A DNA stretch of 64,000 nucleotides from a virus, in the IMG/VR virus record IMGVR_UViG_3300029922_000003. One strand, given 5' to 3'. The translations under genes and the position numbers were made by a program. The notes under the pieces are model-generated. The model made no database searches. It worked only from the letters and a program-made list of their open reading frames with translations, and was not told where the DNA came from. Below are positions 1,802 through 44,850 of the stretch, in pieces; the stretch's first letter is position 1, and the number at the start of each line of letters is the position of its first letter.

Positions 1802-2263
1802 TTAAGAAACGTACTGAGCCACGCTTTTTAAGATTCTACTAGAAAACTTAGGCGGCTTAGTGGGATGTAACGCCAATCCCAGGCGGTGAGGGGTCTTTTC
1901 GTACAATCCCTTTGCAATACTTGGACTTATGGAAATGCCAGTGGGGCAGGATACAACCAAATCTGCTTCAGAATTCCAAAAACCACGGTTTAAGAAATTT
2001 GCAATCTGCTGTGCAGTACTATCAGAGAATAGAGTAGCACCAGGATAATCAAAAGGGTCTCCATCAAAACACTCTATGCGCAGAATGTCCTGTAGAGGAA
2101 TCTTATATGACTTTGTAAGGACACGCTCGTCAATCATTGCCGACCTAGCGCTCATCTCATTTGAAGACACCAATACTACCCAGGGGGTTCTCCCCTGGGC
2201 AGCAGCGGCGTCCCGAAGGACTGCATTGAGTCCCATGTAGCAGGATGCTCGGACTGTTTGCAT
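1802..2263 (-). CDS. Protein-tyrosine/dual-specificity phosphatase-like protein with a degenerate P-loop
   Basis: ILRIECFD...F....AQQIANF...LVVSCPTGISISPSIA aligns with phage PTP-like HCxxGxSRS proteins, but the catalytic Arg is Ile. Confidence 0.55.
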   Translation of the reverse strand: MQTVRASCYMGLNAVLRDAAAAQGRTPWVVLVSSNEMSARSAMIDERVLTKSYKIPLQDILRIECFDGDPFDYPGATLFSDSTAQQIANFLNRGFWNSEADLVVSCPTGISISPSIAKGLYEKTPHRLGLALHPTKPPKFSSRILKSVAQYVS

Positions 2264-2271
2264 CTTTGTGA

Positions 2272-3630
2272 TTACAGACTGAAGTCTTCGTCAAAAGTGA
2301 AGTCATTAAATGCCTCAATCAACGCCTCACGGAATTCATCCGAGATGATGCTGGTTGGGATAACGAAGAATTTCTTCGTCAAATCAAGAACCGAAGGGTT
2401 CGACTGATTGTTGGGGAATACAAAGTAATCCCCAGTCGCCCTAATTCCCCAGGTATTTTCCTGGAAGTAAGCAGTAACCGGAATTACATCATCCTCACTA
2501 TTAACTATGTCTGCGATATTTTTCTCCTCATCATCGACCCACTCATCCTGATCGTTATATTGTCCGTCAGGGTACCTATCAGATCTTGGTTTCTTACCAA
2601 TACTGATGGTGATCCCTGTCTTGAATCCAGGAGTCGTCATGTCACTGGTGGTGCCTGTGGAGATTGTGACAGTCTTATCTTCAATAATAGCTTTTCTCAT
2701 TGATTCGAGCACTTCCTCAAATGTTTCAGAATCTCGAACAAGGAAGTCTTTGACATCTAGTTCGAGATTGTGCTCTTTAATGGCCTTGAAGAAAGCAGCA
2801 TCTTTGACGGATGATGTCTCTTCAAGGTGATAGCTGTAGTTTCCCATATCTTTCTTTTCGGTCTTGTATGGTCGGAACAACCCGACAACTAGACACCCTG
2901 GATACTTGGCTTGCAAAGAGTCAACTTCGACAAAGAAGTCATCTTCATTGACATCAACTACATCCTGGGCTGGGACAACTGCCCCAACGAGTGGATTCAG
3001 CTCTGTGGCTGGAACAACTTGTGCGGCAAGTGGATTTGCCGGAATAACTTGTGCTGCTAGCGGATTTGGATTCACTGGTGTTGGTGTTGGAGTTGGTGTT
3101 GGAGTTGGTGTTGGGGTTGGTGCTTGGGTTACCACCCTGTTTTCCTGCCAGTCCAATGACCTTGCGGGGACAATAGGCCCGTTGATGTTTACTTCCTGGA
3201 GGATAGTAGTGGCTTTGGGGACCACCTTCTTTGCGGCCCAATCAAACTCGACTGGCTGGACTGCACCAACGAGACCACTAACAACCGACTCAATTTCCTC
3301 TGAATCAACATATGGTGAAACGAAGTCAGGTGCAACAGTAGAGAAGTCGTACGAACTACTCGCAACAATAGACCCAATCACTGCGTACAGGTTGTTGTTC
3401 CGCAAGATCGACTCAGTCACATTGATGTGCTGTGCCAATAGCCCACTCTCAATAGAAGCGAGTGCAACTGCATCAATACCAGGAAATGCAGCAAGGAACG
3501 TTTTTGTTTTTACATCTTCGATTTCGAGTGGAGTCTGGATCGCAGGGAACTCTCGACCAAGCGAGATATATGCAGACCTTGCCTCTCTAACAAGCTTATC
3601 GATGATAAAAATTTGTATAGATTTTAACAT
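2272..3630 (-). CDS. Hypothetical protein with a (PT)n linker and short NPLAAQV repeats
   Basis: 452-aa ORF, A-rich leader, same orientation as neighbours; function unknown. Confidence 0.75.
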   Translation of the reverse strand: MLKSIQIFIIDKLVREARSAYISLGREFPAIQTPLEIEDVKTKTFLAAFPGIDAVALASIESGLLAQHINVTESILRNNNLYAVIGSIVASSSYDFSTVAPDFVSPYVDSEEIESVVSGLVGAVQPVEFDWAAKKVVPKATTILQEVNINGPIVPARSLDWQENRVVTQAPTPTPTPTPTPTPTPVNPNPLAAQVIPANPLAAQVVPATELNPLVGAVVPAQDVVDVNEDDFFVEVDSLQAKYPGCLVVGLFRPYKTEKKDMGNYSYHLEETSSVKDAAFFKAIKEHNLELDVKDFLVRDSETFEEVLESMRKAIIEDKTVTISTGTTSDMTTPGFKTGITISIGKKPRSDRYPDGQYNDQDEWVDDEEKNIADIVNSEDDVIPVTAYFQENTWGIRATGDYFVFPNNQSNPSVLDLTKKFFVIPTSIISDEFREALIEAFNDFTFDEDFSL

Positions 3631-3670
3631 TTGTTTTTTGTTTTTGTTTAGTTTTTAAAAATCGAAGTAA

Positions 3671-3694
3671 GGACCTACCATCTCTGGTAGGTCC
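3671..3694 (-). terminator. Stem-loop ending the Ubl operon
   Basis: GGACCTACCA-GAGA-TGGTAGGTCC (10-bp perfect stem, GNRA loop) followed by TTACTTCGATTTTT. Confidence 0.55.
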
Positions 3695-3744
3695 ATACAA
3701 CAAGACCGCCCTGATATATGTTATATCAAGATTTCTAAACTATA

Positions 3745-4956
3745 TTATTCTCCGGCATACCCCATCATGATATCTTCCATGGAGGCTCCATTTTCTATCC
3801 CACTAGCAATCCTCCGGCCCTTAATCCATTCCTCAAGATTCAAGATCATGCATGCCTCGGATATATTGTATACCGAGAAGATATTGGTCTGCATATCAAT
3901 GATGACATTCAGCTCAGAGCTAGTAAGATTCCCATCTGCTTTAGATAGAATGTTCTTGAGATTGAGTTGAGTTATCTTGTGCCTTGCCGCGACCTTGTTT
4001 ACCTGTGGTTCTATCAGAGACTGATTAACCGGCATCAGCGCCGACGAAGCAGCTGTCGAACGCCCCGCCCTTTCTCGCTTTTTTTTTGAACTGTTTGACT
4101 TACCCCCACGGTTCCAATAGTCGGATCCTTGATGGTGAGCCCCGGTACCGTGATGGGGCAACCCCATGTACGGATGACGTTGAGCATATGGCACAATCAC
4201 CCTAGGCGTGAGGGCCTTGGGGATGCGGTTCTCAACCCAGCGCTTTACCAGCTCTTGATCAACCAACTCCTCACTGGGAGTATTGATCAAGAAATCAAAG
4301 GCAAAGGTCCTGATCTCTGGTGGAGCATTTTCTGATACGAAACAGTTAGGAACCTCAACGAAGTCGCGAAGATCCGGCTTGGATTGATACACCCTTGCCT
4401 TCACAGCCGTCTCCTTGCCTTCACCATCAAACTCAAGAGATCCAGGCAGAATGACAGTAAACCGAGCATGAAGATCAATCTTCGGCCCAGACACCGTTCC
4501 CATGGTGATATGGATACCAGCTGAGTTATCTTCGTCGGTCTTGTCCGTCCCGCTCTGAAACGCTGTAGCGTTGCAATGACTATGGGCAGTTCCCCACTGA
4601 TGGAAACCACCGGCCAGCATCTCGTTCATGTCAGTCTGGAACCTCTCATGGTCTGGCAACTCCTTGGTCGTCATCCCAGTGTTCATCTCCTGAGGGAAGG
4701 CGTGAGCCTTCCACATCCGAGTTGTTTTGTTGTAAAACAAACGAACCTGAGCTTCGGATTTTTCAGTATCATTTATCTTCTTGAAGAAGAACGCAATGGT
4801 GCGCCACAGAGACAGGGACATCTTCCCAGTCTTGAGTCGTAGCAATGGCTCGCTCTTCAGCTCGGTAAACTCAACAGGAGTATACACAGATATTTCTTCC
4901 GTCAGGCTCCTCAAGTAAAGAGGCTTATTGTTGTGGATATACAGTCTTTCGGACAT
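3745..4956 (-). CDS. JAB/MPN+ metallopeptidase (prokaryotic Ubl-system deconjugase) with a C-terminal extension
   Basis: E(AQV)...GTAHSHCNATAFQSGTDKTDE...GIHITMG is the JAMM motif E-x(n)-HSH-x7-S-x2-D. Confidence 0.87.
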   Translation of the reverse strand: MSERLYIHNNKPLYLRSLTEEISVYTPVEFTELKSEPLLRLKTGKMSLSLWRTIAFFFKKINDTEKSEAQVRLFYNKTTRMWKAHAFPQEMNTGMTTKELPDHERFQTDMNEMLAGGFHQWGTAHSHCNATAFQSGTDKTDEDNSAGIHITMGTVSGPKIDLHARFTVILPGSLEFDGEGKETAVKARVYQSKPDLRDFVEVPNCFVSENAPPEIRTFAFDFLINTPSEELVDQELVKRWVENRIPKALTPRVIVPYAQRHPYMGLPHHGTGAHHQGSDYWNRGGKSNSSKKKRERAGRSTAASSALMPVNQSLIEPQVNKVAARHKITQLNLKNILSKADGNLTSSELNVIIDMQTNIFSVYNISEACMILNLEEWIKGRRIASGIENGASMEDIMMGYAGE

Positions 4957-4963
4957 AGTATTG

Positions 4964-6577
4964 TTATCTTTTGATTATGAGTGACTTTTTATCCAAGACA
5001 AAATCTACTCTCTGAATAGACTCTTCTTGGGGCGACGATGGATCTTCTTCCTCAAACATGCTTCGAGAAAATATTTCCTTTCTTTGTATAAATGCCTCAA
5101 TCAATCCCTTGGATATGTTTGAGGGTTGATTGGCGATAGCCGAAGGAACTTCCACCATTATGGCGGTTTTGATCTTGGCTTTTGATGTCCTCTTGATTGT
5201 GGACACAAAAGTCCCAGAGCACTCAACTTTGACTTTCTTAAATAGACCCTTTGCTGTTTTGGGGTCCATCTGAAGATGAGACAATGTTCTATCGTAGTTG
5301 TCACTACTTGGACGGTAGCAATGAAGTCCAAACCCCCCTAGTATACTTGATATGTTACCTGAACCAAGTTCGACAAACTGGTTATCCCAGTAAAGTGGAA
5401 CCTGATCCTCAGCAGCACGAATAGCTGCTTGCCATATAGACATCATTGTTGAACCACTGTGCAGTGATACACTAATTGATGGGGTTTTGGACACCAGCCT
5501 GTCGGCAAACTCAATGACGTTTTTCATCGTCTTGTGTTCACTTGACTGCAATAGGTTGGTCTTTACGGGACCCAGGATCTCAGAGCCGAACTCGTTACAG
5601 AGCATTTTCATGATCTGTCCTCGTACAGTTCCGTAGGTTGAATCCTTGACACCAACCGACTTGATGCTCTTTTGAGCAACTCGAATAGTGTCACTCTCCA
5701 TCATTTTGGATACTGTTTTATGTACCTCGATCTCCTCACCCGATGTTTGAAACACAACTGCCCTCTCGTTGGATCCACCACTTTTTGTTGCTGCAACCTC
5801 AACAAGACTGAAGTCCATAACACCATCTTTGGTCTTAGATGTCTTAACGCTGCAGGTAGTCCATTTTTGATTGTTCCAAAACCACACCACTGAACCAATA
5901 GGTAGAATAAATAATCCCAAGAGACTTTTATTAACCGTATGTTTTGAGTCGATAAAGATATTACTTATATCGAAATTGGCCATGTTCACGTTGTCCTCAA
6001 TTGTCATAACAGTAGGAGTTGAGGTATCTCCGTCAGCAAGACGAATAAACTCAACCTGAATATTGTTATTGGTCGGGTCAAACAGTGAAGACCGTCCACC
6101 ACCACGAGAGCTCCTGGTACGACGACCAACGCTCAAGAACTTGCCCTTGGGAAGGCTGTAGTTAGACCCGCAAACCGTCTTGCATGCCTTTGTTACCTCA
6201 AATGGAATGAATGGAATATCCGCCATGTATGACAGAATCTTTCCATCAATTACTGGATTGAAGTACCCCATAGGGGTCATGTGACTGAATATCTTTTCGT
6301 ACGCTTCAGGTACGATAGGATATCCACATGCCGTCATGTCAAATGGGACGCAATCTGCACCAGGGTGTCCTTCTAGTAAGAGCGCCCCCGCAAAATTACC
6401 CACAAATATATTTCTCTGTGGATTGAGACCCCATCTAACCAACTGGGCCCTACGATCAGACAACATCGAAGACCGATACGATGTATTTTTGAAGTAGTGA
6501 TATGGAGCTATTGGGAAGAACGGCTTATCCACTTGCTCTTCCGATGCTGGTATTGATTGTTCTGGTGTTTGTTCCAT
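4964..6577 (-). CDS. Hypothetical protein within the Ubl operon
   Basis: 537-aa ORF packed between E1 and JAB with 0-7 nt gaps; no recognised motif. Confidence 0.8.
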   Translation of the reverse strand: MEQTPEQSIPASEEQVDKPFFPIAPYHYFKNTSYRSSMLSDRRAQLVRWGLNPQRNIFVGNFAGALLLEGHPGADCVPFDMTACGYPIVPEAYEKIFSHMTPMGYFNPVIDGKILSYMADIPFIPFEVTKACKTVCGSNYSLPKGKFLSVGRRTRSSRGGGRSSLFDPTNNNIQVEFIRLADGDTSTPTVMTIEDNVNMANFDISNIFIDSKHTVNKSLLGLFILPIGSVVWFWNNQKWTTCSVKTSKTKDGVMDFSLVEVAATKSGGSNERAVVFQTSGEEIEVHKTVSKMMESDTIRVAQKSIKSVGVKDSTYGTVRGQIMKMLCNEFGSEILGPVKTNLLQSSEHKTMKNVIEFADRLVSKTPSISVSLHSGSTMMSIWQAAIRAAEDQVPLYWDNQFVELGSGNISSILGGFGLHCYRPSSDNYDRTLSHLQMDPKTAKGLFKKVKVECSGTFVSTIKRTSKAKIKTAIMVEVPSAIANQPSNISKGLIEAFIQRKEIFSRSMFEEEDPSSPQEESIQRVDFVLDKKSLIIKR

Positions 6578-7291
6578 TTATTCCTTTAGGTCTCCAACCA
6601 TCTTTGTCGCATAGCGCATGTCGGTGTTGCTTATCTCAACCGGCCAGAAGTCGTATGACTGCTCGGGGTCAAGTTCTTTGTACTCAGTGGTCCAGAAGTT
6701 CCACAAGAGTAGTGTGTGTGCTCCGGCAAAGTAATTTGCCAGTGATGTTTGTGGAATCTCTTCCAGGTGCTCTTCGGTATTGCACCCAGCCGCATGGACA
6801 GGTGAACCGCGCTCAGTAGTAAGTATCTCAGGATATCGCACTCGCGGATCCAGAGTAGTCCCCTCCCACTTGTGGTCGTAATAATACGAGCTGGCAGATA
6901 TCCGACCATTGGCTCCAATGAAGCACTTTGCCTCATGACGATCAACAATTGATAGGATGTCTTTTCGAGCCGGATGATTGTCGACAAACGCAATGACAAC
7001 AGAACCATCCTTAATGGGGAATGATCCAGTCACATATTCGGAATGTGTCTTGAGATTGATGTTGGGGTGACTTTCACCAAGAACCGACATCAAGGCCTCT
7101 GCCTTGTTCATTCCCGTCAATCCGCTGGCGAAGAGCTGACGCTCATAATTCCTGTCCTCGATTGTATCGCCATCAACTAGGGTTACTGTTGACCCCTTAA
7201 ACTCCTTGGAGTAATTGAGGGTCTTGAGGAATGCTGGCAAGAAATAGCTGCATACCCCTCCACATCCGATGACGTAGTAGTTCTGTTTCAT
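6578..7291 (-). CDS. ThiF/E1-family ubiquitin-like activating enzyme
   Basis: VIGCGGV nucleotide-binding loop, DGDTIEDRNYERQ, NKAEAL, FVDNHPAR, candidate catalytic Cys in AAGCNT, PQTSLAN. Confidence 0.9.
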   Translation of the reverse strand: MKQNYYVIGCGGVCSYFLPAFLKTLNYSKEFKGSTVTLVDGDTIEDRNYERQLFASGLTGMNKAEALMSVLGESHPNINLKTHSEYVTGSFPIKDGSVVIAFVDNHPARKDILSIVDRHEAKCFIGANGRISASSYYYDHKWEGTTLDPRVRYPEILTTERGSPVHAAGCNTEEHLEEIPQTSLANYFAGAHTLLLWNFWTTEYKELDPEQSYDFWPVEISNTDMRYATKMVGDLKE

Positions 7292-7333
7292 ATTTTGATT
7301 AATTGTTTTTTGGTTGATTTTTGTTTATCTAAG

Positions 7334-7370
7334 AAATGGTCAGTGCCGACTTTTCGGCACTGACCCATTT
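7334..7370 (-). terminator. Strong intergenic stem-loop (attenuator or processing/stability element)
   Basis: GGTCAGTGCCGA-AAAG-TCGGCACTGACC, 12-bp perfect stem, short U run. Confidence 0.5.
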
Positions 7371-7391
7371 AACTTTCAGTTAGTGCGTATA

Positions 7392-8498
7392 CTATTCGTT
7401 TATTGCGCGTACGCGCCTACGAACTGTATTCCGAACTGCCTGCTGCACATCTGGAACATCAGCTACTGGAGCTGGAGTATCACCCACTGCCAGATTGTTA
7501 TCAGCAGTAATGAACAGGTTGTGATCAGTAGGGGTAAACACTATGTGGTCATCTCCCTGATTAACTCCAAAGAATTGATTACCAACAGCTGGTGTATGCC
7601 ACAATCCAGCGGCACCTGCACCATCAGTAACCTGAACCACCGTAGTACCAACAGCTGGTGGTGTAACAATCTGATCCACAGCCTCAGGTGTACGAATTTC
7701 ACCAAATCCTGTAATCGCACCTTCGCCAACAGCTGGAGTTTCATTGGCCATGGTAGCGCGAGGAACTTCTCCCGCCTCTGCTGCCTCTGCTGCCGTGGGA
7801 GCGGGAGGAGGGGTAGTAGGAGCTGCCGTAGGAAGATTCTCAAAGTCAGCTGGATCCATATCGACGAATCCATCTGTAACCTGAGGAGCACCACGATTAG
7901 GTGCAGGTGTTGGCTCAGCTATATCCGCCCAATTTACTTCAGCCCCAATTCCACCAATAATTGGTGCAATGGGAACTTGTTGACGTGGAGTTGTAGGCTG
8001 ATAGGCAGCTGGGGCAACAACTGGAACAACTGCTGGAGTAGCCTGCTGCGCCACTGGAGTATTGAATGCATCAGCTGGGAAAACTCCCGTAAGGGGTTGT
8101 TCCTCCACTCGAACCTCTGGTAGGGCTTGTGGTACAGGAGCCTGTTGTGGCTCCTGCTGTCGAGGCATCTCTGCAATGAATCGCAAAGCCCAAGGAGAAT
8201 CTTCTCCTCTGGAAACCTCTGCTTCCAGCTTTTTAACAACTGCATCGAATATTTGGCACTGGAATTGACCAATCTCAAAGGACTCGGATAGCTCCTTAGA
8301 TATAAAACTTCGGTCCCGCCTATCCGCTTTTTGTTCTGCAGTAAGTGGGAATATTTTCAGCTCCCCTCCATTTTTTTTGAGATAACTAAAGTCGTCAAGA
8401 AGAGACAACATCCTGGACCGACGAGTAGCTCCGAAAATAGTTTCGGAACTGACAGGCAATCCAGGCAACTCCAACATTTCTTGGAATAAGGATTTCAT
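7392..8498 (-). CDS. Pro/Ala-rich protein with a 278-aa lysine-free region (putative scaffold/adaptor in the Ubl operon)
   Basis: 368-aa ORF; last Lys is at residue 90. Confidence 0.75.
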   Translation of the reverse strand: MKSLFQEMLELPGLPVSSETIFGATRRSRMLSLLDDFSYLKKNGGELKIFPLTAEQKADRRDRSFISKELSESFEIGQFQCQIFDAVVKKLEAEVSRGEDSPWALRFIAEMPRQQEPQQAPVPQALPEVRVEEQPLTGVFPADAFNTPVAQQATPAVVPVVAPAAYQPTTPRQQVPIAPIIGGIGAEVNWADIAEPTPAPNRGAPQVTDGFVDMDPADFENLPTAAPTTPPPAPTAAEAAEAGEVPRATMANETPAVGEGAITGFGEIRTPEAVDQIVTPPAVGTTVVQVTDGAGAAGLWHTPAVGNQFFGVNQGDDHIVFTPTDHNLFITADNNLAVGDTPAPVADVPDVQQAVRNTVRRRVRAINE

Positions 8499-8507
8499 GT
8501 ATGTGTA

Positions 8508-9317
8508 TTACCAACCAACTGTGGCGTATGGAAGGCCATCAAGATAGTAGTTTCCAACTTTGACGGTGAGGATTGTTTTGGCGGACTTGATGGGAGCAAC
8601 CTGCTTCTTTTCTCTGTTCCACCCAATTAGCTGGTCTGCCAACTCGATGCGATTTGCACCTTGAGTGATCAGATCCGAATTCATGCGGCTCTCAAAGAAT
8701 GACTTGAGGGTACGCTGGATTTCTTCATCCGAGGTTTTGACAGGATTGGTGTACTTATCAAAGGCACTACCCATGCAAACCCTGGCGTCAGCGAAGACGT
8801 TTGGGATACACGGCAAGAAGTTGCCCATAATTAACCCCGCTTTCACATCAAAAAGTTGGAAGCAGAAATATGCATTGATTTCGTAATTGCCTGACCCCCC
8901 TGGAGTAAGAGAGATAGCAACCAAGAACCGAACCTTGCAATCCGAAGTACTGAGAGATTCCGATGAGCAGTAAATCCTATCCTGGAATGCGTCAGTTGCT
9001 GAGCGAGTAAAATCAGCGATCAATCGAGGGGTTCCACTGTGTTCCACAATCTGGAAGGAGGTATCAAAGACAATCCCAGGAATATATCCCCAGTAGACAG
9101 CTTCGTTCTTCTTCGTAATGGACAGGTGGAATGGCACCCTTTTGTACTGTACGCCTGATGATCCAACTGATTCTGCAACCTCAAAAGTCGTATGCTTTTT
9201 GATGGTTGAGAACGACTGATTTGAGACTCGTTCGATGATCTCACTAACATTTTGTAGAGCGAATGGCTCCATACGGTATGCGACACCGTCTTCGTTAAGG
9301 ATAATAAGAGGTTTCAT
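8508..9317 (-). CDS. Prokaryotic E2-like conjugating enzyme (Prok-E2 family D / PRTRC protein B-like)
   Basis: LPCIPNVFADARVCMGS (PN-x-x-x-x-G/A-x-VC active-site motif) and FFESRMNSDL; lies beside Ubl and E1. Confidence 0.78.
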   Translation of the reverse strand: MKPLIILNEDGVAYRMEPFALQNVSEIIERVSNQSFSTIKKHTTFEVAESVGSSGVQYKRVPFHLSITKKNEAVYWGYIPGIVFDTSFQIVEHSGTPRLIADFTRSATDAFQDRIYCSSESLSTSDCKVRFLVAISLTPGGSGNYEINAYFCFQLFDVKAGLIMGNFLPCIPNVFADARVCMGSAFDKYTNPVKTSDEEIQRTLKSFFESRMNSDLITQGANRIELADQLIGWNREKKQVAPIKSAKTILTVKVGNYYLDGLPYATVGW

Positions 9318-9363
9318 GTGTTTTGAAGAACTTGTGGGATATAAAAAAAATAAATGTCTAAGA

Positions 9364-9399
9364 TATCCCCCAATCTCGGCGCAACGAGATTGGGGGATA
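9364..9399 (-). terminator. 15-bp perfect stem-loop directly downstream of the Ubl gene
   Basis: TATCCCCCAATCTCG-(6 nt)-CGAGATTGGGGGATA, followed on the minus strand by a T-rich tract. Confidence 0.55.
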
Positions 9400-9415
9400 A
9401 AATTAGCCTACGAGA

Positions 9416-9661
9416 CTAGGCGGAAGCCTTCTCGTGTGCCTTGTGCTGAACGTTAACGACATCGCCGTCAGAGATGACAGTATTGTCGCTTGCGCGGGAG
9501 CCGTTGAGGACGAACTCCACGTTCTCGTTGCTGTAGCCGAGGGCTGCAGAAACGTTGCGGTTGGCACGAATGCAGCTCAGAGTGGACCCCACAGGGAGAC
9601 CATTGATTGGGAGCTGGTTGCCTCCGAAGGAGACAGTGATACGAATGTTACCGTTTGCCAT
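9416..9661 (-). CDS. Ubiquitin-like beta-grasp protein (ThiS/MoaD/PRTRC-C-like), C-terminus KAHEKASA
   Basis: 81 aa; beta-beta-alpha-beta pattern IRITVSF...STLSCIR...FVLNG...ISDGDVVNV; heads the E2/E1/JAB operon. Confidence 0.82.
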   Translation of the reverse strand: MANGNIRITVSFGGNQLPINGLPVGSTLSCIRANRNVSAALGYSNENVEFVLNGSRASDNTVISDGDVVNVQHKAHEKASA

Positions 9662-9806
9662 AATGTGTATATTATGTTTGCTACCTGGACGCCAGGAGCC
9701 AGCGTTAGTTTTTAATCAAGAACCACAACTAGGCGCTTTCTATAGAAAGGCGCTTAGCCGGCATAACCCCGTAAAAGGTTACACCGGCTGTAGCGCATCT
9801 CCGTAG

Positions 9807-10274
9807 TCAACGCACAACAACACTCTGTATAGGATGGTTCGTGGTCTTGATGACCAGGGACGCTTGCTTGGTGAGGATCTTTTTAGGAAACTCATCCAAG
9901 TGCCTTTTAGGACTGAGGGTGTTGAAAGTCTCGCCCAGATTCTGGATACGAGAGTTTCTACGCCTTGTGTTCTGATTAAAAATACTGGCCTTCGCTAGCA
10001 AATGAGGAATTATCTGGTTATGATCTGAGGTGGCTTCAATTTTGACAGTGAACGCTACAATCGCGTCGGTATCAATCACGTCAATGGTCTCCTGAGAGCC
10101 AAAAAGGATTGTTACATCCCTGGTCTCTACAGCAGGCTCTGCCTCGTCCTGATCATTTGCAAGATTCGCAATATAATTACGAACCTCTGCTAAAATTCTT
10201 TCTTTCTCTGCTCCGTCCTGGACTGAAGCAGTCAAGACTGTATCTAACTCCTCTACACTAATCTTCTTTGCCAT
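9807..10274 (-). CDS. Hypothetical protein
   Basis: 155-aa ORF in the ORF track, same orientation as neighbours. Confidence 0.7.
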   Translation of the reverse strand: MAKKISVEELDTVLTASVQDGAEKERILAEVRNYIANLANDQDEAEPAVETRDVTILFGSQETIDVIDTDAIVAFTVKIEATSDHNQIIPHLLAKASIFNQNTRRRNSRIQNLGETFNTLSPKRHLDEFPKKILTKQASLVIKTTNHPIQSVVVR

Positions 10275-10329
10275 ACTGAACTTTCTACTAAACTAACATG
10301 GGCAATATCTGAGCGGCCTTTGCCGCTTA

Positions 10330-10473
10330 TTTTGTAGTAATAGTTTTGTGCACTGAATGGTAACAGGATGATCCGGCCCCTGCCTCTGTCCTGAAGAAAC
10401 CTGCAGCTCGCAAAGGGACTCGGTCACTTACTATTTGTGGATGGTTTCACCACAGCCTTGCGGCACTACAAAA
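10330..10473 (-). ncRNA. Candidate multibranched structured RNA
   Basis: Closing helix TTTTGTAGT/ACTACAAAA, GCC-GCAA-GGC, TGTGG/CCACA with a TGAAA loop, AATAGT/ACTATT, CAGGA/TCCTG; ORF-free. Confidence 0.45.
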
Positions 10474-10481
10474 AGGCAATT

Positions 10482-10695
10482 TGGTAGGGTGGGACGTTAC
10501 TTCCCACGATTATCTGCGTTTCGGTATACTCTCATTTCTAACCGGACTGGTACTCCAGTATTTCCTTGTAGAGTATTTTAAGGTCTAAGCTTTATCAGTG
10601 CCTTGCTAAATACCTGATTCAAAGTCCTAAATTTGGGGCCCTAGGATTATCTTTGAAACTAACCTTTATGTTCTACGATTTCACACCGCCTACCA
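10482..10695 (-). ncRNA. Expanded tRNA-shaped RNA (about 214 nt)
   Basis: Acceptor-like TGGTAGG/CCTACCA; D-like GTG-TGAAATCGTAGAA-CAT; AAGGT/ACCTT stem enclosing two hairpins; ATACTCT/AGAGTAT arm; T-like GTGGGA-AGTAACG-TCCCAC. Confidence 0.5.
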
Positions 10696-10702
10696 AAATC
10701 AA

Positions 10703-11449
10703 CTAAATGTTTTTGAAGACCGATAATGGCTGCCAATAGTCGTCACCAGCACTAACCTCATATTTGTCCGAACGGATGAGACTTAGTACATCGTGTCTAA
10801 CATTATTAAATAACAACCCCTCGGGACGGCCTGAAGTTAAATCAAGGACAATTTCTGTTACAAGCCACGCAGTAGACTTGTCTCGCTTGAGTCGAATCCA
10901 AGTCATTGTTGGAGTGAACCAATCATCAGTTTTTGAACTCAGTGGGTTCTTGTACTTACGCTTGGTGCGGTAAGTGGTTAAACCGTTCTTGCCAGCAAGG
11001 GCACTGCCTAGGTGACGCGTTCTCCAAACACCGGAGTCGTAAAATTCAAGATCGCCAATGAAGCATTGTGAGACCTTACCTAGCTCGATTGCAATCTGTT
11101 CATTCTTTGTCAATAAACGATATCCCGCTGCAGTATTGATCTGCTCGGGAGAGAGGCGACCTGGGTTTAGCCAAGTGTCTTTCGGTTCGATGTCAGCGAG
11201 TGCTGGATACACCACACGGCGAACCGGCTCGATTTGATAGGTCTGCTCCTGTCCCGAAATCGGGATTCTAAAGAAGTTCTGACGAACATGTTCGTCTGTT
11301 ACTTCTGTGCATGGGAAGTCGAACCAAGTATTATCCTGAGAGGATCTTGGGCGGAACTGAACTCCATGCTGTCTGCTTGCTGATACTGCTGAGATGACTT
11401 TGAATTTGTCCTCAATGCTGTTTTGTGGGTCGAGTACTAAGTACGACAT
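10703..11449 (-). CDS. Hypothetical protein between ncRNA blocks
   Basis: 248-aa ORF; no confident family. Confidence 0.7.
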   Translation of the reverse strand: MSYLVLDPQNSIEDKFKVISAVSASRQHGVQFRPRSSQDNTWFDFPCTEVTDEHVRQNFFRIPISGQEQTYQIEPVRRVVYPALADIEPKDTWLNPGRLSPEQINTAAGYRLLTKNEQIAIELGKVSQCFIGDLEFYDSGVWRTRHLGSALAGKNGLTTYRTKRKYKNPLSSKTDDWFTPTMTWIRLKRDKSTAWLVTEIVLDLTSGRPEGLLFNNVRHDVLSLIRSDKYEVSAGDDYWQPLSVFKNI

Positions 11450-41805: not shown

Positions 41806-44800
41806 ATGGACAAACAAATCATCCCAGTAAGCGATAAGGAACTGGAGCGCCTGTATGGCCAACTATCAAACAAGATCGACTTGGTCGACCTAGTACCCGC
41901 AAGTATAAGTTTCCAAGGGAAACCTTTAAATATTTTACACCGTCGTCCGATGTTTGCTGGGATTTTTAGCAAAACCAGAAAGGTTAGAAAGCATGTTTAC
42001 ATGTGCGCTCGTCAATTAGGAAAATCTACGAGCATCAGTGCATCTATATTAATGAACTGCTGGTGGAGGTCATATTTTAGAGTAATGTATGTTGCCCCAC
42101 TAAGCATTTATACTCAGCGTCTACACTCAATGTTTATGGCTCCAATGACCCAGGGCAAGCTATTGCCATGGCCGGTTGTGAATAACACCTGTACAGCTAA
42201 TGTCAACGAAAAGAGTTATGTAAGTGGGAGCAGATTTGTGGGCATTTCTTGCTTCAATAACGTATCTAATTCATTGGGGGTGACGACCGATGAAGTTTAC
42301 CTGGATGAATGCAATTTGGGCTCTACAGCCCTATTTGACGGGATCAATCTTGACACTCTAGTTGACAAAAAACCAGGGGATCGTATTGTTGGATTTAACG
42401 AATCAACGTTAAAATTAGAATATGACACAATTAAATCAATTAAGCACAAAGGCAAACGACACGTCTGGCGAATCATTTTATCCAACGGGGACCACCTCGA
42501 CTGCACAGGGAACGAGCGAATCATGTCCGACAGGGGATGGATATACCTTGCAGAAATACTACCGTGGCATGAAGCTAACAGATGCCCAAGAGCAAGCAAA
42601 GCTAAGGCCATTAAATCACAGTCAAGAGCAAATGGTCTTTGGGACACTATTGGGAGATTCCTGTCTGACAAAAGTGGGTGGTACCACTCCAAGATCCCAC
42701 CCCAAGTATTACGTAACACACGGCCAGTGTCAGGAACGATACTGCAACCGCAAAGCGGAAGTGTTGGGGGACCTAGTGAGGACAAAGCCCAAGATTGTAG
42801 AGAACAGGGGCTGGGGGGAGAAAAGCTGCGTTTTTGGATCCCTAAGTGCTCCATGCCTAGACTCTATACACCAGATCTGCTACACGGGTACTTCAGACAA
42901 GGGCTTGCCAAAGAAGAAGGTAACTCAAGAATGGGTCAAACACTTGACCTGGGAAGCGATTGCGTGGTGGATGATGGACGATGGGAGCCTATCCAATACA
43001 GGGAGAAGTTTTGTGTTCAATACCCAATCATTCTCAAAAGAGGAATCCAGTCTATTGGTGAGCTGGTTAAAAGAAAATGGAGTGAGCTGCAAAGCCATAA
43101 AAATAAAGAAGAAAAGCAGGAACAAGACGTATTACATAATCACAGTGGATGTGGTTGGGACCAAGGTGCTCTTAGAAAACACCAGGATATACTCATTCCC
43201 AGAGATGGAGTACAAGTGGGCCTATCAGGAAGTAAACCTGGAGAAGCCATGCAGGCTCTGTGGGCAACCATTCGTGGGGAATGGGATCCAACCGTATTGT
43301 GGCGAGAAGTGCAGTGCTATCGCCAAGAAGGGAGTAAAGACAAGATGGGTGGAAAGGAATCGAGACGCCATGAACACAAAACGCAAAGAGAGATACTGGG
43401 AGAACTTAGAGGCTTCAAGAAAAAGGGGAAGGGAAACCGGAATGAGGCTGAGACAGGATCCAGTGCGCCATGCAAAACAGATACAAAAAAGGAGAGAAAA
43501 CAAACTCAAGAAAAAGGAAGCACTGAGGACTTCTCAGACATCGTCGGGATTGCCTACCTTGGGGTAGATGATGTATATGATATAGAGACAGAGAAGAACC
43601 ACACATTCTTTGCTAACGGGATAGGCGTACACAACTGTCAGGATCTTAATGCAGACTTCATTCCTCAGATTAGAGAAACATTAGGAACATCTGATTATCG
43701 ATACGAAAGCTATTTCGGAACCGCTCGTGGCGTTGACAACACACTTACCAAGCTTTTTGAAAACTCGACTCAAAACGAGTGGATAATGAAATGTGGGTGT
43801 GGGCACGAAAATGTACCTACCGAAGCTGGAAGAGTTTTGGAAATGATTCAGATCAAAGGGATTTGCTGCATAAAATGTGGCAAGGTAATAGATGTGACCA
43901 GAGGAAAGTGGATTAGGTCGTACGAATACGACCCAATCCACCGTGACTCAGAGGGGTATCATGTCCCCCAAATTATTGTTCCAGACCGTATATTTCCACA
44001 CGATAGATACATCGAAACTATTTATAATAAACTTCATGGGTCTAGCGCATATTCACAATCTAGATTTCTCCAAGAGTGCTTAGGAATACCCACCTCACAG
44101 GGCGGTGTTCCAATCACTCAGAAGGACATTAAAGAGGCTAGTATCTTAGACATAGACCAACACGAACCACCAAACGCTCAGATCTACCACAGGGTAGCTG
44201 GGGGCGTTGACTGGGGCGGTGCTGAGGTGGTCAGCTTTACTGTTGGTGTAGCCGTCGGGTACAGAGACGGCTGCTTCGACGTTCTAGGGGCTATTAGGCC
44301 CACAGGATTGCCGGATGAGCAGCGTCACTATGTTATCGGAGATTACCTCAAAAGCGTAACCGGAAGTAGAATTGAAATTGTAGGAGCTGATGCTGGATTC
44401 GTTGGATCCGTACAGAACCCCAACCTTGGAGCCTACATGGGGGTGCCCACAGGTTCTATTGCCTATGGGACCACCAAGAAGTTCTTCATGCCCAATACCA
44501 ACAATTGCTTTACCGTAGATAGAACAACACTGATTTACATCGTGTTCACTCTTATCAAGGCTCAGCGGATTCGGTTTCCTAAGGGAGGCTGGTTCGAGCA
44601 GTATTCCAGAGATTTGCTCGCTACCTTCACTGAGGACGCAACAAACTCTCATGGAGCCACTATTCGACGCTACAGCCGCTATCAGGACAAGCCAGACGAC
44701 TTTCTGCACGCCCTTGGATATGCCATCTTCATGGCAGCCCTAGGTATTACAGATTTGCCGTCAATGGCTGGTATGGCTACGAACCTATCTATCAATGCTT

Positions 44801-44850
44801 CCTACATCAACGACATCGGAATGGAAGTCGGTAGATTCGGGAATTATTGA
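41806..44850 (+). CDS. terL: Terminase large subunit containing a 442-aa intein
   Basis: ARQLGKST (Walker A); the Walker B VYLDE|CQD is restored by removing the intein; FGTA; C-terminal nuclease GVDWG...PDDFLHA. Confidence 0.9.
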   Translation: MDKQIIPVSDKELERLYGQLSNKIDLVDLVPASISFQGKPLNILHRRPMFAGIFSKTRKVRKHVYMCARQLGKSTSISASILMNCWWRSYFRVMYVAPLSIYTQRLHSMFMAPMTQGKLLPWPVVNNTCTANVNEKSYVSGSRFVGISCFNNVSNSLGVTTDEVYLDECNLGSTALFDGINLDTLVDKKPGDRIVGFNESTLKLEYDTIKSIKHKGKRHVWRIILSNGDHLDCTGNERIMSDRGWIYLAEILPWHEANRCPRASKAKAIKSQSRANGLWDTIGRFLSDKSGWYHSKIPPQVLRNTRPVSGTILQPQSGSVGGPSEDKAQDCREQGLGGEKLRFWIPKCSMPRLYTPDLLHGYFRQGLAKEEGNSRMGQTLDLGSDCVVDDGRWEPIQYREKFCVQYPIILKRGIQSIGELVKRKWSELQSHKNKEEKQEQDVLHNHSGCGWDQGALRKHQDILIPRDGVQVGLSGSKPGEAMQALWATIRGEWDPTVLWREVQCYRQEGSKDKMGGKESRRHEHKTQREILGELRGFKKKGKGNRNEAETGSSAPCKTDTKKERKQTQEKGSTEDFSDIVGIAYLGVDDVYDIETEKNHTFFANGIGVHNCQDLNADFIPQIRETLGTSDYRYESYFGTARGVDNTLTKLFENSTQNEWIMKCGCGHENVPTEAGRVLEMIQIKGICCIKCGKVIDVTRGKWIRSYEYDPIHRDSEGYHVPQIIVPDRIFPHDRYIETIYNKLHGSSAYSQSRFLQECLGIPTSQGGVPITQKDIKEASILDIDQHEPPNAQIYHRVAGGVDWGGAEVVSFTVGVAVGYRDGCFDVLGAIRPTGLPDEQRHYVIGDYLKSVTGSRIEIVGADAGFVGSVQNPNLGAYMGVPTGSIAYGTTKKFFMPNTNNCFTVDRTTLIYIVFTLIKAQRIRFPKGGWFEQYSRDLLATFTEDATNSHGATIRRYSRYQDKPDDFLHALGYAIFMAALGITDLPSMAGMATNLSINASYINDIGMEVGRFGNY
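42310..43635 (+). mobile_element. Intein in terminase (Cys1 ... His-Asn, Cys+1)
   Basis: Starts CNLGST after LDE; block B HLDCTGNERI; block F VYDIETEKNHTFFANG; block G VHN|C. Confidence 0.92.
42569..43567 (+). CDS. LAGLIDADG homing endonuclease encoded in the +1 frame inside the intein (ORF open from 42422)
   Basis: QMVFGTLLGDSCL and AIAWWMMDDGSL motifs; C-terminal CRLC...CGEKC Zn finger and basic helix; own stop TAG at 43565-43567. Confidence 0.88.
   Translation: MKLTDAQEQAKLRPLNHSQEQMVFGTLLGDSCLTKVGGTTPRSHPKYYVTHGQCQERYCNRKAEVLGDLVRTKPKIVENRGWGEKSCVFGSLSAPCLDSIHQICYTGTSDKGLPKKKVTQEWVKHLTWEAIAWWMMDDGSLSNTGRSFVFNTQSFSKEESSLLVSWLKENGVSCKAIKIKKKSRNKTYYIITVDVVGTKVLLENTRIYSFPEMEYKWAYQEVNLEKPCRLCGQPFVGNGIQPYCGEKCSAIAKKGVKTRWVERNRDAMNTKRKERYWENLEASRKRGRETGMRLRQDPVRHAKQIQKRRENKLKKKEALRTSQTSSGLPTLG

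Follow-up and report, generated by a model that had tools for sequence, protein, structure and literature searches.

A putative ubiquitin-like conjugation cassette carried by a phage and its kinship to PRTRC

The bacterial ubiquitin-like conjugation systems that have been studied, type II cyclic-oligonucleotide-based antiphage signalling systems (CBASS) and Bil, defend hosts against phages. What does a comparable set of genes do when a phage carries it? We addressed this question for a six-gene cassette at positions 3745-9661 of a 64,000-nucleotide stretch of DNA (the window) taken from the IMG/VR virus record IMGVR_UViG_3300029922_000003. The cassette encodes a ubiquitin-like modifier (Ubl), an E2-like protein, a protein X, an E1, a protein Y and a JAB metallopeptidase, in this order. 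Judged by its sequence, the cassette is real and probably functional. We consider it probable that it is a phage-owned, working Ubl-conjugation system and a divergent sister of PRTRC (ParB-Related, ThiF-Related Cassette), the operon class 6d of Iyer, Burroughs & Aravind 2006 (PMC1779556), which was predicted in that study and is common on plasmids, integrative and conjugative elements (ICEs) and prophages.

The tag, its enzymes and two orphan proteins

The element that carries the cassette is a phage. Its record of 73,391 bp, estimated to be 58% complete, encodes a DNA polymerase, a DnaB-type helicase, a second helicase and a large terminase. The cassette lies in a replication/early-middle gene block, and the virion genes are located elsewhere. 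Identical copies of its E2 protein occur on at least 24 metagenome contigs of up to 186,740 bp. A sequence-only reading of the window had placed six co-oriented genes on the minus strand here, and all six open reading frames (ORFs) were confirmed with their coordinates.

Related cassettes form a family. An E1 alignment used as query brought up 23 IMG/VR loci together with 35 from bacteria or archaea. In iterative searches among these, the order Ubl-E2-X-E1-(Y)-JAB was found on ~23 IMG/VR viral contigs and ~13 contigs from metagenome-assembled genomes (MAGs) of Verrucomicrobiota and Hydrogenedentes, and these ~36 loci fall into three deeply diverged clades. The first contains the window and loci L009, L085 and L086. 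The second comprises marine-type contigs that encode DNA polymerase I and lack the Y gene. The third includes contigs of ~57 kb as well as contigs binned into Verrucomicrobiota and Hydrogenedentes MAGs. Nearly all related loci long enough to cover the E2 and JAB positions contain both genes.

The 81-aa Ubl (9416-9661) is the most conserved protein of the cassette, sharing 80% identity with its counterpart in L009, whereas the enzymes share 58-64%, Y 42% and X 32%. The two Ubl genes differ at codon positions 3, 1 and 2 in a ratio of 33:13:8. On this pattern the ORF is a real gene with a signature of purifying selection. Gene callers applied to the identical contigs picked a 93-aa ORF antisense to it (9434-9715, plus strand) and missed the Ubl; for this reason, the tag gene is probably absent from public annotations of this phage lineage. 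In L009 the sense Ubl ORF is intact and the frame antisense to it is broken.

The predicted structure of the Ubl (AlphaFold AF2 with a 23-sequence alignment, pLDDT = 84.9, pTM = 0.69) retrieved 312 PDB entries at E <= 0.001 in a Foldseek search. The top matches are SUMO1, ubiquitin, Caldiarchaeum ubiquitin and MoaD, with a probability of 1.0 and TM-scores of 0.65-0.71. The beta-grasp fold that had been proposed for this protein is thus borne out in silico.

The C-terminus of the tag is distinctive. Across 23 phage-family sequences the penultimate lysine is invariant, and alanine follows it in 21. Most of these tags end exactly at K-A, and a few carry 1-28 further residues: S-A in the window and L009 (S80-A81 after the nearly invariant K78-A79), A in L085, G-K in L054, six residues in L026 and 28 in L031. 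Because most tags stop at K-A while a few run on, processing at this point is implied. Ala79 is very probably the reactive end of the tag once trimming has exposed it, and it is presumably the JAB protein that removes S80-A81.

The Ubl gene is directly followed by a terminator-like element (9342-9399) in which a 15-bp stem (9364-9399) precedes a run of eight uridines (z = -5.56). A hairpin of different sequence occupies the same place in L009, L085 and L086, and one is present in nine of ten loci of the other two clades. We infer that it is an attenuating terminator that would supply the tag in stoichiometric excess over the enzymes. Such an excess fits a modifier that is consumed better than a sulfur carrier that is recycled.

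The E1 (237 aa, 6578-7291) is a minimal, single-domain adenylating enzyme of the ThiF fold that has neither zinc CxxC pairs nor a ubiquitin-fold domain. It passes the Pfam ThiF model (41.2 bits, cut-off 28.1; E = 1.4e-10). The motifs that the sequence-only reading had listed, G9-x-G11-G12 and D42-x2-E45-x2-N48-x2-R51-Q52, are present and conserved, together with K63, D104 and a loop cysteine, C170. In an alignment of 17 sequences that extends as far as canonical PRTRC, G9xG11G12, D40, R51-Q52, K63 and D104 are invariant, so that the nucleotide, Mg and Arg-finger positions are all kept, and the crossover-loop cysteine occurs in all 17. Against the PDB, the E1 family profile matches UBA6, SAE2, UBA1 and UBA5 (~2e-14) more strongly than ThiF (1.4e-11) and MoeB (2e-9); BubCD is matched at 1e-10.

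The E2-like protein (269 aa, 8508-9317) is of the Prok-E2_D/PRTRC_B type, with C181 embedded in an I-P-N-x7-C-x-G motif and a downstream N-x-D-L motif. Here too the predicted catalytic signature, P172-N173 ... V180-C181-x-G183, is present and conserved. N173, C181, G183 and L216 are invariant, the first three of them from the phage clades through to canonical PRTRC_B. The Prok-E2_D model is matched by seven of 16 aligned E2 family members, with a best value of 9e-37. The JAB/MPN+ metallopeptidase (403 aa, 3745-4956) consists of an N-terminal domain with an invariant W51, a JAB core and a C-terminal extension of ~230 aa, and its predicted metal site, with the JAMM motif (E68, H125-S-H127-x7-S135-x2-D138), is intact. 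Neither the E2 nor the JAB alignment matched anything when used as a profile against the PDB, and none of the six cassette proteins matched PHROGs.

Proteins X and Y are orphans of different character. X (368 aa, 7392-8498) has a conserved N-terminal domain of ~50-85 aa that is common to the X proteins of L009 and L086 (blastp, 1e-10 to 1e-26), followed by a low-complexity tail of ~280 aa rich in alanine, proline, valine and threonine. This tail is free of lysine. The last lysine is residue 90 in the window and residue 83 of 389 in L009, against a lysine background of 7.5%, and so the absence of lysine is kept as a property rather than as a sequence. It could reflect avoidance of self-tagging or a DNA-mimic-like tail. 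The X protein of L086 has the same lysine pattern and ends in an acidic run. No family match to X was found in Pfam, NCBIfam, PHROGs or PADLOC.

Y (537 aa, 4964-6577) contains 7.3% lysine and has 12 representatives among 1.84 billion proteins. A word-indexed homologue search returned only Y itself, and for the E2 only itself and one relative at 58%. The slot between E1 and JAB is the same in L009, L085 and L086, and is constant within the sub-clade. The AF2 model of Y (pLDDT = 75, pTM = 0.74), which was built whole rather than domain by domain and on which we base no claim of a new fold, features a central SH3/Tudor-like barrel. It has no convincing match in the PDB or BFVD and none in the ESM Atlas; the best VIA match (Z = 5.2 over residues 220-388, a Tudor/SH3-like barrel) is within the stated noise range of the tool.

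Comparison of X and Y with the PRTRC_E and PRTRC_F sets by hhalign gave probabilities of at most 0.4%, from alignments shallow enough that very remote homology is possible. The same method detected no relation to the X and Y families of the other clades, and Pfam and NCBIfam searches with the Ubl, X and Y proteins of the sister clades returned nothing. From these comparisons, the X and Y slots appear to behave like exchangeable accessory modules. The roles of adaptor/E3 and substrate that the sequence-only reading had suggested for X and Y are a guess.

Kinship to PRTRC

Which known system does the cassette resemble most? The proposed likeness to PRTRC held up, in that at the profile level E2 is homologous to PRTRC protein B and JAB to PRTRC protein A. 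The E2 aligns with the PRTRC_B set (hhalign 96.5%, E = 7e-10) and the JAB with the PRTRC_A set (95.5%), and a hidden Markov model (HMM) of the E2 family matches PRTRC_B proteins at 1e-5 to 3e-10. The NCBIfam models of PRTRC are TIGR03734-03742, and they provide the best NCBIfam matches for the E1, E2 and JAB of the window. For E1 the best match is PRTRC_ThiF (1.1e-10), with ThiF models as runners-up. Row 6d in Table 1 of Iyer et al. 2006 (PMC1779556) fits canonical PRTRC in gene set, traits and species. Like the window cassette, PRTRC combines a small Ubl with an invariant penultimate lysine, a Prok-E2_D-type E2 (PN...C.G, without the classical E2 histidine), a minimal ThiF-type E1 and a JAB protein with an additional N-terminal domain, and it resides on mobile elements next to replication genes.

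The two are nevertheless distinct. The PRTRC cut-offs are not reached by E1 (41.3 bits against TIGR03736, cut-off 144.75), E2 (12.1 bits against TIGR03737, cut-off 131.45) or JAB (22.6 bits against TIGR03735, E = 6.4e-5, cut-off 101.8). In PRTRC terms, the gene order of the window is C-B-X-ThiF-Y-A, whereas the PRTRC locus of a Cupriavidus oxalaticus plasmid (NZ_CP032520, L088) reads ParB-E-C-F-B-A-ThiF; loci in Bacteroidota have the order E-C-(F-like)-B-ThiF. The window cassette lacks ParB and any detectable PRTRC E or F. Downstream of the E2 cysteine, PRTRC_B proteins carry S-H-L or T-H-L, whereas the window and all three phage clades have an aspartate (N-x-D-L). For class 6d E2s a histidine C-terminal to the cysteine has been described as "absolutely conserved" (PMC1779556). 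The tags also end differently, in K-A in the window family and in K-G in PRTRC. The alanine terminus, the aspartate in place of histidine in E2 and the conserved attenuator after the tag gene stand out as traits specific to the phage family.

In a tree of E1 proteins the phage-family sequences form a clade of their own (support 98/98). This clade is not nested within the PRTRC clade, which comprises canonical sequences from Cupriavidus, Pseudomonas, Bacteroidota and Herpetosiphon together with Salmonella phage Arash. The branching that joins the two clades is too poorly supported (30/42) to place one relative to the other.

The Ubl termini of PRTRC loci follow a pattern similar to that of the phage tags. 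PRTRC_C proteins end their conserved part in T-K-G or A-K-G. In Cupriavidus L088 and Herpetosiphon L050, the two loci with a JAB of the PRTRC_A type, they are extended, and they stop exactly at the glycine in four loci without a recognised JAB; Bacteroidota PRTRC loci without JAB have a Ubl that ends exactly at this residue. In Herpetosiphon aurantiacus DSM 785 (L050, 4259-4714), a PRTRC_C-like Ubl continues beyond G-T-K-G for ~80 residues within a single ORF, and the locus contains a JAB gene. This Ubl would be a pro-form that requires cleavage by JAB.

Canonical PRTRC is also reported in prophages, for example in prophage AB2 of Burkholderia gladioli, by a 2026 paper that calls the function of PRTRC unstudied (PMC13366799). 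For a gut prophage, a hypervariable hotspot has been reported at PRTRC protein B (bioRxiv 10.64898/2026.10.01.756045).

Among cultured phages, Salmonella phage Arash (OQ632216, 181 kb) encodes an E2-like protein (gp248c), a JAB protein (gp247c) and a ThiF-type E1 (gp246c) in a row (176281-179480; cassette gp246c-gp249c). HMMs of the window family match these three proteins at 2e-6, 6e-20 and 2e-30, respectively, and the Arash E2 has PN...C.G and N-D-D-L motifs like those of the window. The Arash order, (small ORF)-E2-JAB-E1, is unlike that of the window, and no Ubl was confirmed there. In the E1 tree, its long-branched sequence joins the PRTRC clade. The Arash genes were deposited as "structural" or "hypothetical" proteins. 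We rejected the label "structural protein" as a sign of virion packaging, as 116 proteins were so named from a mass spectrometry list of the virion (PMC10585845). Arash might serve as a candidate laboratory model for PRTRC-type phage cassettes. A blastn search with the operon and tblastn searches with the window E1 and JAB found no match in 50,697 GenBank phage records. Only sister-clade E1s gave weak matches, to Arash, Vibrio phages D69, D148 and D181 and Acinetobacter phage ME3.

Proposed action and competing explanations

How might the cassette work? We propose that the 81-aa tag is made in excess, with the hairpin behind its gene letting only part of the transcripts pass into the enzyme genes. 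JAB would clip S80-A81 from the tag and expose Lys78-Ala79. The E1 would then adenylate the carboxylate of Ala79 and take the tag onto C170 as a thioester, from which it could be transferred to C181 of the E2. The E2 would attach the tag, through an amino group, to its target protein or proteins, either on its own or with X and/or Y conferring specificity, and JAB may also be able to take the tag off again. Because the cassette lies in the replication/early-middle block, its most likely role is to modify host or phage proteins during infection, be it in host takeover, counter-defence or the control of replication and recombination. For the same reason, the assembly functions that the sequence-only reading had considered are weakly disfavoured.

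Several points weigh against a working, PRTRC-related conjugation cassette. The matches of E2, JAB and Ubl fall below curated cut-offs. E2 and JAB narrowly miss the Pfam models Prok-E2_D (18.4 bits, cut-off 25; E = 0.0019) and Prok-JAB (21.8 bits, cut-off 25; 1.8e-4), and the Ubl has no HMM match to PRTRC_C, with an hhalign E-value of 0.04 that is not significant. The E1 lacks the domain by which eukaryotic E1s recruit their E2. A C-terminal alanine is unusual among E1 substrates. No function can be recognised for X or Y, and the clades do not share either protein. Our literature searches found no functional study of any PRTRC cassette, and the proposed biological role is read purely from the position of the cassette.

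The cassette offers a tractable entry to the PRTRC/6d class, as the family is a compact clade of ~36 loci, mostly on viral contigs, with all catalytic residues intact. The tag, E1 and E2 are small and soluble-looking (81, 237 and 269 aa), and the predicted processing site is clear. Use of a terminal alanine, if true, would extend what is known of E1 chemistry.

A bolder version of this reading is possible, although we lean against it. In this version, the phages evolved an almost virus-only family with its own system for writing and erasing the tag, marked by the C-terminal alanine, the aspartate-for-histidine E2 and swappable X and Y proteins, and use it to tag host defence or replication factors in infection. 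If phages do tag host proteins, ubiquitin-like tagging would be at work on each side of the conflict between phage and host. A phage-evolved system of this kind would be a viral mirror image of Bil and would provide the first functional assignment for the PRTRC/6d class.

Alternatively, the target could lie within the cassette itself. The tag (or Y) would then be conjugated inside the set, with Y or X as the effector or regulator of a self-contained switch. Type II CBASS provides a precedent, as Cap2 conjugates the cyclase encoded in its own operon. Like the window cassette, type II CBASS has E1 and E2 chemistry and a JAB protein (Cap3), but its E1 and E2 are fused in Cap2, and it is the C-terminus of an operon-encoded protein, the CD-NTase, that is conjugated; the window has separate genes and a beta-grasp tag. 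The Rossmann region of the window E1 matches PADLOC Cap2 models at 3.7e-6 with the rest unmatched, and no CD-NTase was found among the cassette proteins with Pfam, NCBIfam or PADLOC. The E2-E1 slot is always filled, and the E1-JAB slot is always filled in two of the three clades. The lysine-rich Y and the lysine-avoiding X would also fit a substrate and its protected partner. However, the marine clade lacks Y altogether, Y has no effector-like domain, and the X and Y proteins are unrelated between clades according to hhalign, which is more like interchangeable specificity or accessory modules. We therefore regard a target within the cassette as unlikely.

The cassette could also be a weapon of defence or competition that the phage carries, serving to exclude superinfecting phages or to fight rival mobile elements by Bil-like tagging of a competing phage's proteins. 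Both bacterial Ubl cascades that have been studied, Bil and type II CBASS, act against phages, and the genomic context of Bub predicts the same for it (PMC11601596, PMC10557695). Iyer et al. proposed such a function for mobile 6a-6e operons (PMC1779556), and the reported hypervariability of prophage PRTRC protein B (bioRxiv 10.64898/2026.10.01.756045) would be in keeping with it, as would relatives on MAG contigs that are possibly prophages. Bil has the same four activities, namely Ubl, E1, E2 and a JAB deubiquitinase, its thioester cascade has been demonstrated, and its tag is attached to a phage protein. It is, however, a host-encoded defence, and type II Bil, whose E1 is multidomain and whose E2 is of the CEHH type, falls into Iyer class 6C (PMC10557695), whereas the window cassette is phage-borne and has a single-domain E1. 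Bub (class 6E/DUF6527) likewise comprises a bacterial Ubl, E1, E2 and peptidase, but its E1 and E2 lack catalytic cysteines and form oxyesters, and its peptidase is a serine protease (PMC11601596); in the window both cysteines are conserved, the peptidase is a JAB protein and no Pfam match to DUF6527 was found.

No specific kinship to Bil or Bub, which the sequence-only reading had named among similar systems, was seen. PADLOC, in a release for which Bil models are unconfirmed, returned no match for Ubl and E2, a weak generic match for JAB (E = 0.0065) and only weak Rossmann-fold matches to Cap2 for E1. Moreover, the phage is large and apparently of lytic type, with the cassette inside its replication block, and conservation of the cassette is wide among viral contigs, unlike the sporadic occurrence of defence islands. 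That the cassette serves defence or competition thus appears rather improbable.

A role as a sulfur carrier or in other non-conjugating adenylation, of the ThiS/MoaD type and with E2 and JAB serving other purposes, is very improbable. ThiS/ThiF and MoaD/MoeB share with the cassette a ThiF-fold enzyme that adenylates a beta-grasp protein. The minimal ThiF-fold E1, with ThiF models second among its NCBIfam matches, and a weak Pfam match of the Ubl to ThiS (E = 0.07) would be in line with such a function. However, ThiS/ThiF and MoaD/MoeB have no E2 or JAB, their carriers end in G-G and they reside in cofactor operons, and ThiF and MoeB carry the zinc CxxC pairs that the window E1 lacks. The phage tag ends in K-A, a cysteine-bearing UBC-type E2 and JAB accompany it in nearly every spanning locus, and the attenuator implies that the tag is made in stoichiometric excess. 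No sulfur-transfer genes (rhodanese, cysteine desulfurase, thi or moa) were found in the ~36 homologous loci. Linkage to thiamine, molybdenum cofactor or tRNA-sulfur genes, which the sequence-only reading had raised as evidence that would count against conjugation, is therefore never seen in homologous operons; the lone thi operon recovered (L063) belongs to a distant, ordinary ThiF.

Finally, a decayed PRTRC remnant hitch-hiking in the phage genome would explain the PRTRC scores far below cut-offs and the missing ParB, E and F proteins, but it is barely credible given catalytic residues that are intact and invariant in three clades, the purifying-selection signature of the tag, conserved synteny and RNA hairpins, and identical copies on at least 24 metagenome contigs.

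Surroundings of the cassette

Hairpins with z of -5 to -6 occur in each intergenic gap of the operon. The structured leader and the terminal hairpin that had been noted from the sequence both stand out against shuffled sequences (z = -5.2 and -6.2). The leader (9662-9806, minus strand) forms a 15-bp hairpin within a longer stem and two smaller hairpins (-56.9 kcal/mol, z = -5.19, none of 200 shuffles as stable). It has an equivalent in L009 and may also terminate the upstream gene for a 155-aa protein. A GC-rich 12-bp hairpin between X and E1 (7338-7365, minus strand; z = -5.71), again with an equivalent in L009, would be an internal terminator or a processing site. Two hairpins lie 3' of the JAB stop codon (3671-3731, minus strand; -35.2 kcal/mol, z = -6.21). 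The second, a 10-bp stem (3671-3694) followed by a U-rich tract, is likely the operon terminator. Rfam gave no match in 3500-11000 at E <= 1.

The cassette is flanked by genes for a 155-aa protein upstream (9807-10274, minus strand) and a 153-aa protein downstream (1802-2263, minus strand). Both are syntenic in L009, L085 and L086, with 35-68% identity, and neither has a family match. They may reflect synteny of the lineage or be extra members of the cassette. An intergenic region of ~430 nt upstream of the 155-aa gene (10275-10702) had been flagged in the sequence-only reading as a highly structured RNA.

Identifiable neighbours of cassettes across the family belong to replication or recombination, namely RecT with an exonuclease, a ligase-like protein and a sliding-clamp homologue. 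The nearest cellular relatives are on Verrucomicrobiota MAG contigs (L037, L041, L043 and L045) and a Hydrogenedentes contig (L039). They may be prophages or mis-binned phage contigs, and may give a clue to the host of the third clade. In L045 the clamp homologue is located 1.3 kb downstream of JAB, and the ligase-like protein also adjoins MAG cassettes. A DnaN-like sliding-clamp homologue (TIGR00663, 8.5e-37) is encoded directly upstream of PRTRC_E in a Bacteroidota PRTRC locus (L082, 4954-6048). No DnaN was found in the phage record, and the clamp link of L045 and L082 can thus not be claimed for the window. ParB_N had no match across the 73-kb record, which is ~58% complete, and none adjoining the cassette in related loci. 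No integrase was found in the record, although no systematic search was made.

The large terminase is encoded by an ORF of 1014 aa (41806-44850, plus strand), of which terminase profiles cover only residues 55-178 and 612-974. A 381-aa ORF (42422-43567) lies inside it in a different frame. The terminase gene may be split by an intein or by an inserted element of the homing-endonuclease type.

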